A DNA stretch of 64,000 nt. Source: Candidatus Poribacteria bacterium. Lineage in GTDB: Bacteria > Poribacteria > WGA-4E > WGA-3G. The stretch lies in assembly GCA_022828145.1 (NCBI GenBank), contig JAJEJA010000015.1:9298-73297 (forward strand), read 5' to 3'. Below, one piece after another: positions 42,327 through 50,051 of the stretch. Made by a program: the position numbers and the translations under genes. The stretch's first letter is position 1, and every line of letters starts with the position of its first letter. The notes below the pieces were generated by a model. It did no database searches. It saw only the letters and a program-made list of their open reading frames with translations, and was not told where the DNA came from.

Positions 42327-43394
42327 CTATTTTTCACCCCGTGGGTATGAACCGAGGATTTTCACATTACGACATATATCTTCCAAGGATTCAAGGGCGA
42401 AGCGCACGTTCTCATCGTCTGTATGTGCTTCAATATCCGCGTAAAAGATATATTCCCACGGCTTTGTGCGAGAAGGGAGTGATGCTATTTTGCTCAAGTT
42501 CAATTGATGTTTATCCAACACACCCAACATTTCGTACAGCGCACCGATTTTGTCTTTGATAGCAAAGAAGATGGATGTGCAGTCGTTCCCTGTTTTGCCA
42601 TAAGTTTGATTGCCAATAACAAAGAAGCGAGTAGTGTTATCTGGGTCATCCATAATGGAATCTGCTATGATAGGAACCTCATAGATTTCACTTGCAAGTC
42701 GGCTTGCGATAGCAGCTGAATTCGGTTCTGCTGCGGCGCGTTGTGCAGCATCGGATGTACTTACCACCTCAATCTGTTCCACCGATTTCATGAATTTGTT
42801 CAACCATAGTCTACACTGTGCAAAGGTTTGACTGTGTGAGTAGATACGTTGAATTTTTGAGAGCGGAAACCTTGAGATAAGATTATGTTTGATGGGTTGG
42901 TATATCTCTGCACAGATATTGAGTCGTGTGTGTAAGAAACGTTCTAAGACGTCTCTGACGGTGCCGTGCACAGAGTTTTCTATGGCAACCACGCCAAAAT
43001 CAGCGCGTCCTGTTTCAACTTCAGTGAAGATATCTGTCTGCGGTGTGATGGGAATTAATTCTGCTTTAGGACCGAAAAATGCATCACTTGCGGTGTGTCC
43101 GAAACTTCCCACTGGTCCGAGATATGCGATACGGTTTTTTGGTATTTGCACATTTCGTGATGCCGAAAAGATTTCCGCCCAAATTTTCTCAATAGCGTCT
43201 TCAGGGTATATACCGAAATTCTGCTTTATGAGACGAGTTATGATTTCGTACTCACGATGCGGCACATGGATATCCGATCCTTCATCTGCTTTTAGGCTTC
43301 CCACTTGCTTTGAGAGCTGGGCACGTTCATGCAGTAGTCTTAGAAGTTGGTCATCAATGCGATTTATTTCATCGCGTAATTCTTTTAGTTCCAA
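42327..43394 (-). CDS. pheA: Chorismate mutase / prephenate dehydratase
   Basis: LRDEINRID..LL.LL.ER (CM), AYLGPVGSF, ENSVHG, NTTRF, ACT domain SLPSR. TTG 43394 with GGAG SD is preferred over 43484. Confidence 0.93.
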   Translation of the reverse strand: MELKELRDEINRIDDQLLRLLHERAQLSKQVGSLKADEGSDIHVPHREYEIITRLIKQNFGIYPEDAIEKIWAEIFSASRNVQIPKNRIAYLGPVGSFGHTASDAFFGPKAELIPITPQTDIFTEVETGRADFGVVAIENSVHGTVRDVLERFLHTRLNICAEIYQPIKHNLISRFPLSKIQRIYSHSQTFAQCRLWLNKFMKSVEQIEVVSTSDAAQRAAAEPNSAAIASRLASEIYEVPIIADSIMDDPDNTTRFFVIGNQTYGKTGNDCTSIFFAIKDKIGALYEMLGVLDKHQLNLSKIASLPSRTKPWEYIFYADIEAHTDDENVRFALESLEDICRNVKILGSYPRGEK

Positions 43395-43490
43395 TGCAGT
43401 GATCTCCGAAAAAACGTTCAATATCACGGTATCGGGCAGACGATTGCCTACCGGATACCGTGAGATTGTGGTGTTATGTAGCATGAAAAT

Positions 43491-43736
43491 CTAACTGTTC
43501 AATTTTCTCATAGCAGCAATCATCTCATCATCTGAGGGATTGTTTTTTACCATTTCAACAAAATCGTCAGCAGATATGTTATGTTCCTCCAGGAACATTT
43601 TATCTTGTGGTCATGGATATATGTATTCACCGATGATACCTTGCAGTTTTGCGCTTGCTTTATCTGAGATTCTGGCTAACCAGGGGATTCCACCGATGAT
43701 CATATCACGATGTCGTGGTTTCCAATCAAGTGACAT
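43491..43736 (-). CDS. DUF5069-like small protein with in-frame UGA (candidate selenoprotein, 81 aa)
   Basis: AGGAGG SD; MSLDWKPRHRDMIIGGIPWLARISDKASAKLQGIIGEYIYP-UGA-PQDKMFLEEHNISADDF...; hairpin immediately 3' of the UGA. Confidence 0.7.
43571..43610 (-). promoter_or_regulatory. Putative bacterial SECIS element
   Basis: 12 nt after the UGA: AUGUUCC-UGGA-GGAACAU (43581-43598), plus a lower AGAUA/UAUCU stem. The loop is 19 nt from the UGA and has G at position 2. Confidence 0.6.
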
Positions 43737-43771
43737 GTGTTTCACCTCCTTCTATAGATTCAATACCGAAT

Positions 43772-46700
43772 TTACTCCTTACTATTTTCTTGAAGTTGTT
43801 TTAATGTTTGCTCTAAACGTTCGAGATGTTGTCCGTATTCTGCCCAGTTGCCGTTGCGTCGTGCGTTTTGAGCGTTGGTAAAGTGGTCGTTTGCCTGCTC
43901 AATTAACGTCTGCAGTGAACTATCAAGAGTGGGGAGAGCAGAGGTATCAAGTGTACCGTCAACGGTAGGTGTCGTTCCTTCGCTCTGTAACCCCAATCTC
44001 GTCAAAAACATCTCTCGGAGTGCTACATCAAGACTCTCACCCCAGACGACCTCATTCCCATATCCGATAACGACCCGTCGCAATTCAGGAATAGCAGTCT
44101 TTTCATCTTCAGCTTGGATATAGATTGGTTCAACATAGAGTAGAGAGTCGTTCATAGGTAGAATAAGCAGATTTCCGCGCAGGACACGAGAACCTTGCGT
44201 ATTCCAGAGGCTAATCTGTTGTGAGATCTCTGGTTCTTGACTGATGAAGTTTTCAACCTGCATGGGACCTGCGACCTGTTTCCCTTTCGGAAAACGATAG
44301 ACGAGGAGTTGACCGTATTGCGGCAGGTCACATCGTGCTGCGATCCAGGCAGTAAGATTTGGTTTGTTGTACGGCACATAAGGTAACATCAACATAAATT
44401 CAGCTTTTTCTTGTCCTGGTAACTTTATAACGACATAATAGGGTTCAACAGGTTGTCCATCTACACCTGAGCTTTGAACAGGTTGCTGTGTTGTACCAAA
44501 ACGTTGTGTCGGTTGTGTTGTCTGGACTTGGCTTGTTTGAGCATCTGTATGGTCATAAAGTTCCTTGCCGATTTCCCATCTATCCTCAGCAGCATAAAAC
44601 GTAACCGGATCGTTCATGTGGTAATCTTCGTATACGCGTGCTTGTATAAGAAACATCGATGTTGGGTATCGAATATGTGCTTTGAGTTCTTCAGGCATTT
44701 CGGAGAAGGGCTTAAACAGGTCAGGAAAGATTTTTCGATAACATTCTGCTATTGGGTCCTTTTCCCGTTCTACCAGATAGAATTCAACAGTGCCATCATA
44801 AGCATCTACCACCACTTTGACAGAGTTTCGGATGTAGTTTCCCCAAGGTTCACCGTTTCGTTGTGTGCTTGCGCCTTGTTGCCTTCTATTGTCAACAAAG
44901 TTTTGCATAGAAACAGCATAAGGATAACGGTGTGTGATGGTATAAGCATCAATCATCCATACAATTCTCCCGTTATGAATTATGATGTAAGGATCGCCAT
45001 CATAGCGTAAGAAGGGTGCGATTTTCTGAACACGTTTATTGATATTTCGATTGTATAGGATTTTGCTGTTGTGTGCTGATTGAATCTCCCCTGGTAGTAC
45101 AAAGTTTATCTGGTTATCAAATTTGAGCATATACAGAAATTTACGCCAGAAAGAGTTTAGTGGGACGCCGCCCTTTCCTTTATATGCGTATTCGGCGTAT
45201 TGTTGCCCCTCAATTGGATAATCGAATTCAAGTGGTCCTTTACTACGGTCAGGGTGTACGATCACATATCGGTTTGTCCGTTCACCATAGTAGATGCGAG
45301 GACCGGGTATTTCTGCAAACCTGTGTTGCCACTGTGTATCGTATTCAGGGGGTAGTCCTTTGATGTACATATTCGGTTTGCCGCTGTTAATTTCATTCAC
45401 GGGACTAATGACGGCACCGTAGCCGTGTGTATAGACATAGGTTTCCTTATACCAATCATTTCTGTTTTCTATGGGGAGTTGATCAATATTCAGTTCCCGA
45501 CCTGACAACATCACTTGCCTAATTTCATCATCAACGATGTATCTGTCGATGTCAACATCCACGAAGTCGTATTGGGTTCGGAGTTCTTGTAGTTGTCGGA
45601 ACGTTCGACGTAAAGGTCGCCAATCCCATAGACGTATGCTATTGAAAACAGGTGCGTTTTCTTCACTTATGATCTCTTCGTAACTAATTTCTTCTGTCAA
45701 CGGATATTCCTCTACTAATACCTTGTTTTCCGCTAAACCGTAAGCTTGTAGCGTTGCTCTGATGTTGTAATTGATAAACTGTGTCTCTAATACCTGTTTA
45801 TTCGGTTCAACACGCCATTTCTGTATAATCTGAGGATATAGATTACCGAGAAGTCCTGCGGCGATGAAAAAGATCAATCCCCCAAAAGCATAAGTGTTCT
45901 TACGGATAAAGATGCTGACGATAAAAATAAGAGCAACCAATACCGTAATAACGAGCATTATCCACAGTATAGGTAGCCGCGCGTTTATTGCAGCGAATCC
46001 ACCACCTCCACGGACGACATCATTCGTTCCATATAACAGGTCATACATGACAAACCGGTAATTCCAGGCGCGGAAGAGGAGCGTTATACCAGCAAGCGTA
46101 AATAGATGTACCTTCACCTTGAAAGGGGGTTGGAATCGGAATTGGTTTGTATCTCCTGTGATCAATCCGTGAAAAAAGTAGATGAGAATTGCGAAAATTG
46201 TTACCAGCATGAACATCCCAAAAAATGTGCCGCATATATACCGCAACATCGGCATTTTGAATATGTAATAGGCGTTATCCTTTTTGAAAATTGGGTCTCG
46301 GGCAATTGATGTAAAGAACGCCTTCTGTCCCGACTCAATTTGCACCGTTGTGTTTAGACCTAATCCGATAGGTATGTCAACTGCTTTACCGTCCTCTGTC
46401 CTTTCCTCGGTCAGAATACTCTCAACTTGTGCAGTTTGTTCGTTCCCATCAACATTAATTGTTATCTGATCACCGATCTGTATTTTTTTCGCGTTTAATT
46501 CTAATGTTGAAACGGGGAGTTCGGTTGAGTCGATACCTTCACCTACAGCGATAGGTGTTGCAGCCTGAAAGTTCAAGGTATCGGCGTGTGTATATCGTAG
46601 ATAGACTTCCCATCTGTCAGTTGCAGTATATCCCATTAGCACGCTGTATAGAACTGCAAGCAGTGTGAGTCCTCCATAAATCATCTTTCGTGTGTTGGTT

Positions 46701-46984
46701 TCTCCGCCAGTGAATTCAGTGCCGCCTAAGAAAGCAGGACTGAGGTGTGCTGGTGTGAATTTATATACTATGAATAAATTCGTTAAGAGAACGATGAGAT
46801 AGACTAACCCTACGATAACGCCAACGAAAATCTTAGTGGTGAGTATTTTGGTGTAGACGCTGAGGTGTTCCACCATCCCGAACCATAGTACATCAGGATA
46901 GATATTGACCCATGCGGCAATAATCCCTGCCAGTACGGCTAAAACGGCGGCAATTATGATAAACTTCTTTACCCGTGGTTCCAT
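43772..46984 (-). CDS. UPF0182 family membrane protein
   Basis: IRLWDWRPL, DVDIDRY, YTHGYG, PRIYYGE, APFLRYDGDPY, NYIRNSVK, LLYVEPIY. Confidence 0.92.
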   Translation of the reverse strand: MEPRVKKFIIIAAVLAVLAGIIAAWVNIYPDVLWFGMVEHLSVYTKILTTKIFVGVIVGLVYLIVLLTNLFIVYKFTPAHLSPAFLGGTEFTGGETNTRKMIYGGLTLLAVLYSVLMGYTATDRWEVYLRYTHADTLNFQAATPIAVGEGIDSTELPVSTLELNAKKIQIGDQITINVDGNEQTAQVESILTEERTEDGKAVDIPIGLGLNTTVQIESGQKAFFTSIARDPIFKKDNAYYIFKMPMLRYICGTFFGMFMLVTIFAILIYFFHGLITGDTNQFRFQPPFKVKVHLFTLAGITLLFRAWNYRFVMYDLLYGTNDVVRGGGGFAAINARLPILWIMLVITVLVALIFIVSIFIRKNTYAFGGLIFFIAAGLLGNLYPQIIQKWRVEPNKQVLETQFINYNIRATLQAYGLAENKVLVEEYPLTEEISYEEIISEENAPVFNSIRLWDWRPLRRTFRQLQELRTQYDFVDVDIDRYIVDDEIRQVMLSGRELNIDQLPIENRNDWYKETYVYTHGYGAVISPVNEINSGKPNMYIKGLPPEYDTQWQHRFAEIPGPRIYYGERTNRYVIVHPDRSKGPLEFDYPIEGQQYAEYAYKGKGGVPLNSFWRKFLYMLKFDNQINFVLPGEIQSAHNSKILYNRNINKRVQKIAPFLRYDGDPYIIIHNGRIVWMIDAYTITHRYPYAVSMQNFVDNRRQQGASTQRNGEPWGNYIRNSVKVVVDAYDGTVEFYLVEREKDPIAECYRKIFPDLFKPFSEMPEELKAHIRYPTSMFLIQARVYEDYHMNDPVTFYAAEDRWEIGKELYDHTDAQTSQVQTTQPTQRFGTTQQPVQSSGVDGQPVEPYYVVIKLPGQEKAEFMLMLPYVPYNKPNLTAWIAARCDLPQYGQLLVYRFPKGKQVAGPMQVENFISQEPEISQQISLWNTQGSRVLRGNLLILPMNDSLLYVEPIYIQAEDEKTAIPELRRVVIGYGNEVVWGESLDVALREMFLTRLGLQSEGTTPTVDGTLDTSALPTLDSSLQTLIEQANDHFTNAQNARRNGNWAEYGQHLERLEQTLKQLQENSKE

Positions 46985-47138: not shown

Positions 47139-50051
47139 TTAAAACGCTTGCCCTAAACCGAAGTGATATTTGACTCCTGGTTTGATGCTTGCTAAATCGG
47201 TGTGACGGGCAGCTGCGAAATCTAAAGAGAATAAGCCGAGACGTAGTCGCAGCCCAAGACCGATTGATCCTTGCACATCTGCCAGACGGTAACGTCTACC
47301 TTCACGCCGTATGATTCTGAAAGGATTTTCTGAGCTGTATAATTCATCGTTCCACGTTCCGCCAATGTCCGTAAATAGAACACCGCCAATGCCACCAATT
47401 GACCAACGGAAGGGCCAACCGAAATAGAGAACATCTATGAAAGGCACACGCAGCTCAATGTTGAATAGTCCAACCCGAGAACCGACAAAGTCTTCGTAAT
47501 CATAGCCTCGGAGTGAGTCTATGCCACCCAGATAGAAGAGCGATTTGTCCGCGCCGAAACTACCACCAAGTAGTAACCGAGTAGCGATCGTTGAACGTCT
47601 GCCTAAACCGATATATTTACGAATATCAAAAATAGCATTTGTTAGTGCTAACTCGCTACCCAGGACAGGAAATGAACGTTCTACTTCAAAACGGTAGCGT
47701 GTACCTCTATAAGGGGCAAACTCTCGCCACATTGTATTATCACTCACGAAAGCGAGGGAACCCATTGAGAGAAATCCACGATCATAGAACTCCACAGGAT
47801 TAACCGTGTCAAAATTGTAAGAGAACGGTGTCGTATACATAGAATACTGAAGATCTAATCTGTTGTACCGATTAAAGGGATAACTGAGATAAGCACCGCC
47901 TCCAGTAATGCGTTGTAAAATACCAGTTTGATTTCGAAGTGAACCGAGTAGATGGTATTGATGATAGTTGTAGACAACTACCCCGACATCAGCGCGATTC
48001 GTTAAGTATCCGTATTGTGCGATAAAATCCGGGACGAGATACCCACCAGACTGATTTATGACGCTGAGTTCAACGCGATGATTACCTAACATATCACTGG
48101 CACTCATCTGAATTTGACTACGTAACAGCCCGTCAGCTCCATAACTAAATTGTGGAAAAATAGCATCAAACCGGAAAGAATTGCGTGTACTGTACTTCCG
48201 TCTTGCAATTCTATAGTTTCGCTGAGAGGCATCTGAATCAATATTTATAGCAATCGGCTCTGACGCAAACTCAGGTATTTCGACTTTTTCGTTTAGTATT
48301 TTGTCTGAGTTCATCACACAGATATCATATTTCCCATCCTGATATGCGCTAAAGAGCAATCTTTTTCCATCTGGTGAGAAACTTGGATTGGAACACCCGG
48401 TTATTAGGTTCGTAAGACGTGTCGTCTCCCCGGTGGCGATGTGGAGTTTATAAGCATCGTATACACCTGACCTATCAGCACAAAACAGCACGGATTCTCC
48501 ATCTGACATCCATATAGGACTGATAGCGTTTGTAGCATTATCCGTAAGTTTCTGTTCCGTTCTTTGATCCATATCAATAAGAATAAGTCGGTTTTTGTGT
48601 TCACGTTCTGAAGCGTAGACGATCGTATTTCTATTTGGATGCCAAGAGGGGTGCGTATCGTTGAAGGAATCTCTGGTTAATCTGCTAATAGATTCTGTGT
48701 CAAGGTCAATGATGTAAAGGTCTGTTTGTCCTTCCTTCAGAGCAGTAAAAACGATACGGTCACCAGCACCATTATAGCTGGGGGAGTTTGCTGAATCATA
48801 GTCGAGTTTAACGTAATGTGTGAGTTTATGTGTGAGGATATTGACTTCAAAGAGATAATTTGCATCGTGGTGTTTACCGATGAAAGCGATGTGGTCCCCG
48901 TTGGGTGCCCACGCAAGGCTTCTGTCAAAACCGCTGGAATCAGCTCTGATCTCCTCGTATTTATTACGGAAAAACCGCTTTGTAATTCTATCAAGTTTCT
49001 TGCCTGTTTTTGAAGACATCAAGACAATTTCTAAGAAACCTTCATTTGCTGTAACATAAGCGACGATATCGCCACTGGGGGACCAAACAGGTTTAATGTT
49101 ATGAGAAAATCTGGAGTTTTCAGTAAGTTTTCGAGAAACGATATTCGGCAACTCGCGATCTTCTATGAGGGGCCAATAGCGTTTTCGCAGCATCTGTTGA
49201 TAACCGACATCAAATTCTTTCAAACCGATACCCAGTACGTTTTTGAAGACTGCGTCAATATTTTTTGTTCTACTCTGTCGCAATCCACGTAGTATCTCAG
49301 CGATTTTATCTCTTCCATAAGTCGTGACGAGATATTCAACAGCCAACTGTCCCATTTTATAGCCGAGATAAGGAGAACTCAGACGATTGAAGTTCTGCAA
49401 CTCAGTTAATGGAAGGATATTATTGTTGATACTTGCATCTCGTAGCACCATCTCACCCAGAGCGTCTTTATCATTTGCGAAGTAATCTGCCATACCTTCT
49501 ATGAACCATATAGGTGGTGAATAGAGGAACTCTCCGCTATAGATACGGGCATGCGGTTTTTGATAGAGAATGTCAAACTGAAAGATGTGTATGAGTTCAT
49601 GATAGATCACCTCACGAAAAGCTTCAAGTGATCCTGTGAAAGGTATAACAACCCGATGTTTAAAGAGTTCGGCAAAGCCGCCGATACCTTCATGCAGCTC
49701 TTGTAGAATGATGTTAGTTTCTTGAAAATCTTTATGTGATTTGTATAAGATGAGCGGTGTTCTACTCTCAATTTCGTGTTCAAAATCCTCGCTATGTTTT
49801 TCATAAGCTTCTTCAGCGATAGCAGCCATTATCGGAACAAGTTTTGCTTCGCTTGGATAGTAGTGTATATCAAAATGTTCAGTGCGATGGATATGCCAAT
49901 CAAACCTTTGTGCAGTGATTTTGTTCTTGCCGAAACCTTGTGCCCAAACGTTTGCTGAGAAACATATCGTTAAGATCAAAACGGTGAAAAATCGTGCGAG
50001 TCTAATTCCCGATAATGTGTTTTTTGATAAGGTTTTTTTTTCAGTTTTCAT
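47139..50051 (-). CDS. Secreted protein: peptidase MA-like domain + PD40/TolB beta-propeller + Omp85/BamA-type barrel
   Basis: Signal peptide, FGKNKI, HELIH...WFIEG, repeated PxWSPxG, LRGY motif, terminal Phe. Confidence 0.8.
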   Translation of the reverse strand: MKTEKKTLSKNTLSGIRLARFFTVLILTICFSANVWAQGFGKNKITAQRFDWHIHRTEHFDIHYYPSEAKLVPIMAAIAEEAYEKHSEDFEHEIESRTPLILYKSHKDFQETNIILQELHEGIGGFAELFKHRVVIPFTGSLEAFREVIYHELIHIFQFDILYQKPHARIYSGEFLYSPPIWFIEGMADYFANDKDALGEMVLRDASINNNILPLTELQNFNRLSSPYLGYKMGQLAVEYLVTTYGRDKIAEILRGLRQSRTKNIDAVFKNVLGIGLKEFDVGYQQMLRKRYWPLIEDRELPNIVSRKLTENSRFSHNIKPVWSPSGDIVAYVTANEGFLEIVLMSSKTGKKLDRITKRFFRNKYEEIRADSSGFDRSLAWAPNGDHIAFIGKHHDANYLFEVNILTHKLTHYVKLDYDSANSPSYNGAGDRIVFTALKEGQTDLYIIDLDTESISRLTRDSFNDTHPSWHPNRNTIVYASEREHKNRLILIDMDQRTEQKLTDNATNAISPIWMSDGESVLFCADRSGVYDAYKLHIATGETTRLTNLITGCSNPSFSPDGKRLLFSAYQDGKYDICVMNSDKILNEKVEIPEFASEPIAINIDSDASQRNYRIARRKYSTRNSFRFDAIFPQFSYGADGLLRSQIQMSASDMLGNHRVELSVINQSGGYLVPDFIAQYGYLTNRADVGVVVYNYHQYHLLGSLRNQTGILQRITGGGAYLSYPFNRYNRLDLQYSMYTTPFSYNFDTVNPVEFYDRGFLSMGSLAFVSDNTMWREFAPYRGTRYRFEVERSFPVLGSELALTNAIFDIRKYIGLGRRSTIATRLLLGGSFGADKSLFYLGGIDSLRGYDYEDFVGSRVGLFNIELRVPFIDVLYFGWPFRWSIGGIGGVLFTDIGGTWNDELYSSENPFRIIRREGRRYRLADVQGSIGLGLRLRLGLFSLDFAAARHTDLASIKPGVKYHFGLGQAF

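Follow-up and report, generated by a model that had tools for sequence, protein, structure and literature searches.

A probable selenoprotein gene of the short DUF5069 type in Poribacteria, with a conserved in-frame UGA and a SECIS-like hairpin

A UGA-containing gene in the gap upstream of pheA

The window, i.e. the whole stretch of 64,000 nucleotides analyzed here, belongs to a genome assembly of 5.06 Mb in 123 contigs (94% complete) and carries a short minus-strand gene in the gap between a UPF0182 gene and pheA (Table 1). The gene with a preceding Shine-Dalgarno sequence that the initial annotation had placed in this gap can be read directly from the sequence, with AGGAGG at 43750-43745 and an ATG start codon at 43736-43734 on the minus strand. 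The positions given there for the in-frame stop were likewise exact: codon 42 is TGA (43613-43611), found in the context GEYIYP-U-PQD, and 39 further codons follow before the TAG. The downstream gene pheA begins 6 nt past this stop codon and is itself followed by queG on the same strand. In all the Poribacteria families that were examined, pheA directly follows the gene on the same strand, including those genomes where the UGA is replaced by a Cys codon; UPF0182 is the upstream neighbor only within the order of the window genome. As TGA serves as the stop of six of the 29 stop-to-stop frames of at least 300 codons in the window, the codon has not undergone a genome-wide reassignment. The window furthermore encodes, at 47139-50051 on the minus strand, a 970-residue protein with Peptidase_MA, PD40/WD40-like beta-propeller repeats and a C-terminal Omp85 domain, an architecture that looks unusual for an outer-membrane protein.

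Table 1. Positions of the gene, its elements and its neighbors in the window.
Feature	Position	Strand	Basis
pheA (chorismate mutase / prephenate dehydratase / ACT domains)	42327..43484	-	Pfam
Short DUF5069 CDS, 81 codons, TAG stop 43491-43493 included	43491..43736	-	Translation with TGA=U and Pfam
SECIS-like hairpin, 7-bp stem, UGGA loop	43581..43598	-	Comparison and bSECIS geometry
UGA codon 42, read as selenocysteine (probable)	43611..43613	-	TGA in orthologs; aligned with Cys of the YPCP motif
Shine-Dalgarno AGGAGG, 8 nt 5' of the ATG	43745..43750	-	Sequence
UPF0182 gene, upstream	43772..46984	-	Pfam PF03699, E 1e-237

Domain assignment and predicted fold

When translated through the UGA, the gene product matched the Pfam family DUF5069 (PF16798) with an E-value of 1.1e-13 and a score of 52 bits (cut-off 27), and no match at E <= 1 was obtained for the read-through protein in NCBIfam. 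The Pfam match covers profile positions 4-75 of 133, i.e. less than a full-length domain, and the window protein is a short-form DUF5069 corresponding to the domain's N-terminal half. Many DUF5069 representatives of about 80-100 residues exist. An AF2 model computed from an alignment of 96 sequences (pLDDT 88.4), which supersedes a poor model from a shallow alignment of 27 sequences (pLDDT 56.8), places a beta-hairpin (residues 13-18) ahead of four helices (20-32, 43-51, 56-65 and 69-80). This model is closely similar to PDB entry 3omd, with an E-value of 6.3e-4, a TMq of 0.85 and an rmsd of 1.0 A in Foldseek, and in VIA-align 79 residues (3-81 of the model, 4-82 of the chain) superpose with a Z of 13.0 and an rmsd of 1.3 A. 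Other structural relatives were not usable (Foldseek E >= 4.7, VIA Z <= 3.8), and since the fold searches were empty beyond 3omd, the fold provides no functional lead. At the sequence level, the profile of our protein alignment A1 matched 3omd with an E-value of 1.9e-16, placing a Cys (in YNCPLD) at the Sec column.

In the model, Sec42 ends a conserved loop, G-x-Y-x-Y-P-U-P-x-D, directly before the helix 43-51. Residues P7, R8, R22, D25, K26, A29, D45 and D69 are near-invariant. The protein is devoid of Cys, and there is consequently no CxxU or UxxC pair. The C-P-hydrophobic-D motif may resemble heme-regulatory Cys-Pro motifs.

Conservation of the UGA among Poribacteria

In a first draw of relatives, comprising four families and eight genera of one order, all 61 genomes had an ortholog with exactly one TGA, at identities from 99 down to 60%. 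Extending the search to the phylum, we found the gene in 168 out of 176 genomes at E <= 1e-10. The genomes lacking a match at this threshold were three in family f5, two in f10, one in f11 and two in genus g13 (both 81% complete); in one of the latter, G123, a looser search recovered only a protein with three DUF5069 repeats, and no ortholog. Outside family f8, every ortholog listed has exactly one in-frame TGA, and the claim that the UGA is kept in relatives, as opposed to being a lone nonsense mutation, was thereby borne out both by the first draw and across the phylum. From the orthologous loci, 164 were extracted, with some genomes fetched twice, and the 163 coding sequences without N were counted; one locus cut by a contig end and another with N at the site were left out of the extracted set. 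Codon 42 is TGA in 155 of these 163 and TGC or TGT in the remaining 8. Since the relatives share kinship and are not independent, fewer evolutionary events took place than these counts suggest.

The Cys codons are confined to family f8, where they occur in all eight genomes (five genera) as part of the motif YPCP. Loss of the selenocysteine machinery is not the explanation of these Cys forms, as selA was found above the cut-off in seven of the eight genomes, the eighth being 61% complete. In family f5, none of the three genomes has selA and the DUF5069 gene is absent as well.

Searching 1.84 billion representative proteins with a profile, we identified 635 relatives at E <= 0.001. Among the best 150 of these, 109 have Cys and 18 have Ser at the Sec column. 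Three full-length DUF5069 repeats make up another protein of the window genome, about 427 residues long (G000:C84:163560-164843; L019-L021), and two- or three-repeat proteins of this type recur across the phylum. All three of its repeats lack a Cys/Sec site, having G-x-x-S-G-x-D there, and the site is consequently a feature of one DUF5069 subfamily. The proposal that the UGA falls on the conserved Cys of DUF5069 is thus upheld with regard to the position, by the eight f8 genomes and the 109 relatives with Cys, but not with regard to universality, given the Ser-containing relatives and the three-repeat protein.

Translation past the UGA

Selection on either side of the UGA was quantified with the Nei-Gojobori method (NG86) on 400 random pairs from 115 unique Sec coding sequences, after excluding three sequences with a one-codon insertion and keeping pairs with dS between 0.05 and 3. 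The dN/dS was 0.050 for the upstream part (229 pairs) and 0.097 for the part downstream (294 pairs), the latter changing to 0.089 (230 pairs) when the codons of the hairpin described below were removed, with dS at approximately 1.2-1.3 throughout the gene. A downstream ratio of about 0.09 denotes purifying selection on the protein in this reading frame, and hence translation of the part 3' of the UGA. A motif conserved in this downstream part is NPSD.EMI.

Contigs from RNA libraries also bridge the UGA, namely X1 record 3 (43426-43888), X2 record 13 (43421-43757) and X4 record 19 (43528-43701). These libraries, from two studies, are labelled 'sponge metagenome' and may contain DNA. X1 record 3 differs from the window at 20 positions, all of them listed, and none lies in the UGA or the hairpin. 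The contigs are consistent with transcription, of which they are not proof, as DNA can occur in libraries of this kind. In run X1, a 40-nt contig with a very high word depth (2900) was also seen at 43717-43751, where the Shine-Dalgarno sequence and the start codon lie, depth being an unreliable measure here.

A SECIS-like hairpin that accompanies the UGA

Beginning 12 nt past the UGA, the arms AUGUUCC (43598-43592) and GGAACAU (43587-43581) enclose a UGGA loop (43591-43588), and within these lies a conserved core consisting of GUUCC (43596-43592), UGGA and GGAAC (43587-43583). The 57-nt context has an MFE of -11.2 kcal/mol, with a z of -2.13 and nine out of 200 shuffles folding as well; the hairpin alone reaches -6.9 and its core -4.2 kcal/mol. 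The single-sequence fold is by itself weakly unusual and only suggestive, and the significance of the hairpin instead derives from the comparison with other genomes. The 14-nt core occurs once in the whole genome, and an Rfam search of 43300-43900 yielded no match at E <= 1.

For this comparison, Sec fragments of 57 nt were aligned (A2; 106 distinct sequences). All 106 can form the five core pairs, and the departures are G-U wobbles together with one compensatory change from G-C to A-U. For the five pairs in turn, the types are GC 104, AU 1 and GU 1; UA 104 and UG 2; UA 106; CG 106; and CG 105 and UG 1. The two outer pairs are less constant, forming in 68 and 87 of the 106 sequences, with the outermost being AU in 60 and GC in 8. 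In none of 500 column shuffles was the observed percentage of pairing or the covariation score reached, and the pairing of 92% in register dropped to 28-70% when the partners were slid by 1-3 columns. As the core is nearly invariant, RNAalifold yields only a tiny covariation term (-0.06).

Stronger evidence for the hairpin than covariation is the synonymous freezing of the codons that it covers. In the 115 coding sequences, codons 48-51 (F48, L49, E50 and E51) are TTC in 115, CTG in 114, GAG in 115 and GAA in 113, which corresponds to normalized synonymous entropies of 0.00, 0.03, 0.00 and 0.13, respectively, compared to mostly 0.4-1.0 for other conserved codons. The same amino acids are encoded freely elsewhere in the gene, e.g. 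F59 by TTT (66) or TTC (49), and E71 by GAG (59) or GAA (44). This is a constraint at the RNA level and it is tied to the UGA: the eight Cys forms have other codons at 48-51 and their predicted folds contain no such hairpin there. The expectation that the hairpin would be kept in relatives therefore holds for the Sec sequences, all 106 with core pairs, and the hairpin is absent from the Cys forms. Low synonymous variation was also seen for codons D4 (GAT in 113 of 115) and K6 (AAA in 111 of 114), which may reflect a constraint on translation initiation.

A 2026 review (PMC13188914, section 5 and the legend of Fig. 2) gives constraints for bacterial SECIS elements (bSECIS), i.e. a loop of 3-9 nt, a stem of 4-16 bp, a distance from UGA to loop of 16-37 nt, a G in the first two loop positions and an MFE of at most -7.5 kcal/mol. 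The window hairpin falls within these as they are given there, with a 4-nt loop that has G at position 2 followed by another G, a stem of 5-7 bp, a loop starting 19 nt past the UGA and, for the 57-nt context, an MFE of -11.2 kcal/mol. To the published N-G-[G/U]-N-N loop pattern, UGGA is only a loose fit. The SECIS-like geometry initially described, a 7-bp stem with a UGGA loop 12 nt past the UGA, was thus correct in its positions and agrees with these bSECIS constraints.

Selenocysteine machinery in the genome

The genome carries what the decoding of a UGA as selenocysteine requires, and this was a check that had been proposed for the locus: selA, selB, the gene for tRNA-Sec and a TGA-containing selD were all detected. 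The protein matches all exceed the curated cut-offs, with selA at 593 bits and selB at 354 bits, and tRNA-Sec, for which the gathering score is 47, reached 75.7 bits. The tRNA-Sec gene is located about 110 nt 3' of selB on the same strand (G000:C64:70240-72338; L002, L011), and the two may constitute a selB-selC unit. The selD match (G000:C75:22875-23801; L010) is itself a selenoprotein gene: its one in-frame TGA stands in KCAG-U-ASK, and a mini-hairpin, AGCUC-CGGGU-GAGCU, lies 11 nt past this UGA. Two oddities were noted for selA in relatives, i.e. a match containing TAA in one genome and a second copy split into two overlapping frames in another (G077:C45:3723-5078 and G074:C3:1436-2801); these could be pseudogenes or assembly errors. 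According to PMC5649159, selA and selB are enriched in bins of sponge symbionts.

Relatives outside the phylum set and the evolution of the Sec/Cys site

Scanning metagenomes with P0002 as the query, we obtained 40 loci, with TGA at the site in 21 and a Cys codon in 19. Fifteen of the TGA loci make up a divergent lineage (DFRPRSR...YPU[GP]ADKKFLEEL) with the hairpin AAGUUCC-UGGA-GGAACUU, including one U-G wobble variant, and a sixteenth locus of this lineage, L226, is on a contig that ends 5 nt past the UGA. The sole Cys member of the lineage, L207, has AAATTCCTGGAAAAACTC at the place of the hairpin, which is thereby lost. Another four TGA loci can be assigned to the Poribacteria orthologs, either from neighboring pheA and UPF0182 genes or from the tree. 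The last one, L225 (631-861), has TGA at the same codon and a different 7-bp stem, CGGUUUC-UGGAU-GAAGCCG, also starting 12 nt past the UGA. In the tree it adjoins rows of Cys forms with weak support, and it may represent an independent gain of Sec, a lead only, as it is a single contig.

In a quick maximum likelihood tree (64 rows, 83 columns, with the Sec/Cys column masked), the Poribacteria and the divergent lineage fall in one clade of 37 Sec and 9 Cys sequences with an SH-aLRT of 100, and the tree needs at least three Sec/Cys changes. Given this single clade, the shared hairpin is most simply homologous, with one origin and reversions in f8 and L207. The Sec form would accordingly have arisen once, in an ancestor of Poribacteria and the divergent metagenomic lineage, and would have reverted to Cys at least twice, with a separate origin of Sec in the L225 contig.

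Gene neighborhoods outside of Poribacteria vary. In the divergent Sec lineage, the gene is flanked by an SBP_bac_5 or RsmD-like gene and, at its opposite end, by an HDOD response regulator; pheA was not found beside it in the stretches examined, some of which extend only a few hundred bases past it. Cys forms elsewhere neighbor a Cys/Met-PLP enzyme fused to a CoA-binding domain, FabF/MaoC, or a GDP-mannose dehydratase. With no common partner among these neighborhoods, the context gives no function.

Alternative explanations

The first alternative concerns the residue that enters the protein at codon 42. Translation through the UGA could in principle yield something other than Sec, if the hairpin stimulates near-cognate read-through (with Trp or Cys) or another form of recoding, and such an explanation draws on the shortness of the hairpin and on the fact that the residue at UGA 42 is assigned by comparison. 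Against this, the genome has the full Sec machinery, UGA alternates with Cys codons only, which is the classic Sec/Cys pair, and the hairpin both fits the published bSECIS geometry and resembles the hairpin of the genome's own selD; we consider non-Sec read-through improbable. Even less probable is that the UGA is a true stop ending a 41-residue peptide, e.g. a leader of pheA, with the downstream conservation being due to regulation of pheA at the RNA level. The gene does lie 6 nt 5' of pheA, this adjacency is shared by all Poribacteria families examined, and gene callers do emit peptides ending in ...YIYP. However, the downstream part evolves with a dN/dS of about 0.09 at saturated synonymous sites (dS about 1.2), it aligns with full-length Cys homologs and is included in the match to 3omd residues 4-82, and UGA and hairpin both persist in the divergent lineage, where no adjoining pheA was found in the stretches examined, some of them short. 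The leader peptide was rejected on the grounds of this downstream dN/dS and of the homology to full-length relatives.

Two further explanations concern the nature of the stop codon and of the palindrome, respectively. A bare in-frame stop codon, with nothing more, could be the product of a nonsense mutation, a decaying pseudogene, a sequencing error or a genome-wide reassignment of TGA. The probability of this is practically nil, as the same TGA recurs in 155 out of 163 loci of separately assembled genomes as well as in metagenome contigs, and as TGA stops six of the 29 long frames of the window; the conservation of the TGA and its use as a normal stop refute the entire group. The palindrome, in turn, might be an intrinsic terminator or some other element of the plus strand, since a consensus scan flags 43581-43598 followed by TTTATCTTGT on that strand, one of two sites against 0.8 expected from shuffles. 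The neighboring genes with a Pfam match are all on the minus strand, though, the hairpin accompanies the UGA and disappears where the site has become Cys, and the T-rich tail represents Q, D and K codons with third positions that vary among relatives. A plus-strand terminator was rejected on account of this unconserved tail, and we regard it as extremely unlikely.

Proposed decoding mechanism and function

With a high degree of confidence, although by way of sequence comparison, we propose that this is a genuine bacterial selenoprotein gene in which the UGA of codon 42 is decoded as Sec by means of an intragenic hairpin. The Sec-containing DUF5069 member that had been suggested for the locus is supported by the machinery, the conservation of the UGA, the Sec/Cys pair and the restriction of the hairpin to Sec forms. 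The hairpin, with its stem of 5-7 bp and its UGGA loop 19 nt past the UGA, would act as the bacterial SECIS and recruit SelB-GTP-Sec-tRNA(Sec), upon which the ribosome would insert Sec and translate the 39 further codons. The product is predicted to be a cytoplasmic single domain of four helices and a beta-hairpin, with the sole Sec/Cys residue, in the invariant Y-P-U-P-x-D loop, as its likely functional center.

A functional role of Sec42 is suggested by its position at the N-terminus of a helix and by a ring of invariant charged residues, both as predicted in the model. It is plausible, and we place middling confidence in it, that Sec42 is a redox-active or nucleophilic selenol acting together with an external thiol or substrate. 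That the selenolate instead binds a metal or cofactor is conceivable but less likely. The adjacency to pheA in all examined Poribacteria families might hint at a link to aromatic amino-acid synthesis, a lead that is weakened by the finding of no pheA beside the gene in the divergent lineage. Lastly, the most far-reaching proposition is that short DUF5069 is a selenoenzyme or redox switch in which Sec marks the active site of the DUF5069 superfamily, possibly serving as a redox regulator or accessory of PheA in the sponge symbiosis; this we hold to be doubtful.

Annotation state and novelty

Standard ORF calling misses the gene, just as the initial annotation had stated, with public gene calls either stopping at ...YIYP or placing W at the UGA. 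At least 11 of the best 150 relatives end exactly at ...Y[IV]YP, i.e. they are cut at the UGA, and P0002 has W at the Sec column. A collection of 5.8 billion proteins contained 16 near matches, none of them named. Ten of the 16 were read, and these comprise seven full-length or near-full-length proteins with W at the Sec column, two Cys forms and one ending in ...YIYP; three further near matches also end in ...YIYP. Two wrong forms are hence in public circulation, namely proteins with W at the Sec column, resulting from translation of TGA as W on short contigs, and ...YIYP fragments with spurious N-terminal extensions (wrong calls: P0002, P0173-P0181; P0009-P0012, P0185).

A search for 'DUF5069' in the paper collection used here found no paper, and one for '3OMD' returned, among the matches listed, other meanings only (3-O-methyldopa, 3-O-methylglucose). 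The passages retrieved on Poribacteria and selenocysteine concern other matters than the DUF5069 gene. PF16798 is not in Table 1 of the 2026 review (PMC13188914), which covers 119 prokaryotic selenoprotein families or subfamilies, and the main text of the BSepDB paper (PMC13326102), whose family list is a supplement, mentions neither 'DUF' nor 'Poribacteria'. Table 4 of PMC2398784 describes GOS_A with two Sec sequences, 155 Cys homologs and no conserved domain. Short DUF5069 is very probably an undescribed selenoprotein family, with GOS_A, known by description only, being possibly the same family.

As such, it would add a well-supported family to the approximately 119 known for prokaryotes, and one that is nearly universal (168 of 176 genomes) in an uncultivated phylum of sponge symbionts, with Sec in all but one family. 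Sec would moreover mark a probable functional residue of DUF5069, for which a solved structure (3omd) and a Cys variant are at hand. For the Sec machinery that PMC5649159 reports from sponge symbionts, the gene would be one concrete use. The finding should be of interest to the selenoprotein and sponge-symbiont fields alike.

Comparison with known systems

The gene has in common with known bacterial selenoprotein genes the in-frame UGA, an intragenic stem-loop with G in the loop, a Sec/Cys pair, and selA, selB, selC and selD in the genome. It differs from genes with known bSECIS elements, as summarized in section 5 of the review cited above, in having a stem at the short end (five conserved pairs), a UGGA loop and an element that is predicted from sequence. 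The closest structural counterpart, 3omd from Leptospirillum rubarum (145 residues), shares the fold and the motif R..DKARA...G..G.Y.Y.CP.D; the window protein is shorter, at 81 residues, matches residues 4-82 only, and has Sec in place of the Cys of 3omd. Unlike thioredoxin-fold and CxxU/UxxC selenoproteins, it lacks a second redox Cys, and its model is helical with a best unrelated Z of 3.8.

Among metagenomic families, GOS_A is likewise a selenoprotein family with many Cys homologs, a comparison made by description only from the table cited above. GOS_B, in contrast, corresponds to NF041374 ('GDCCVxC', 58 positions) and is a different family from short DUF5069. The predicted families DUF523, DUF3179, DUF166, DUF1573, DUF1858 and the hypothetical proteins DG/DW/DF (PMC13188914, Table 1) rest on a like type of evidence, namely a Sec/Cys pair, flanks that are conserved and a SECIS-like hairpin. 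Short DUF5069 is set apart from them in that PF16798 is unlisted and in that its one Sec lacks a CxxU/UxxC partner.
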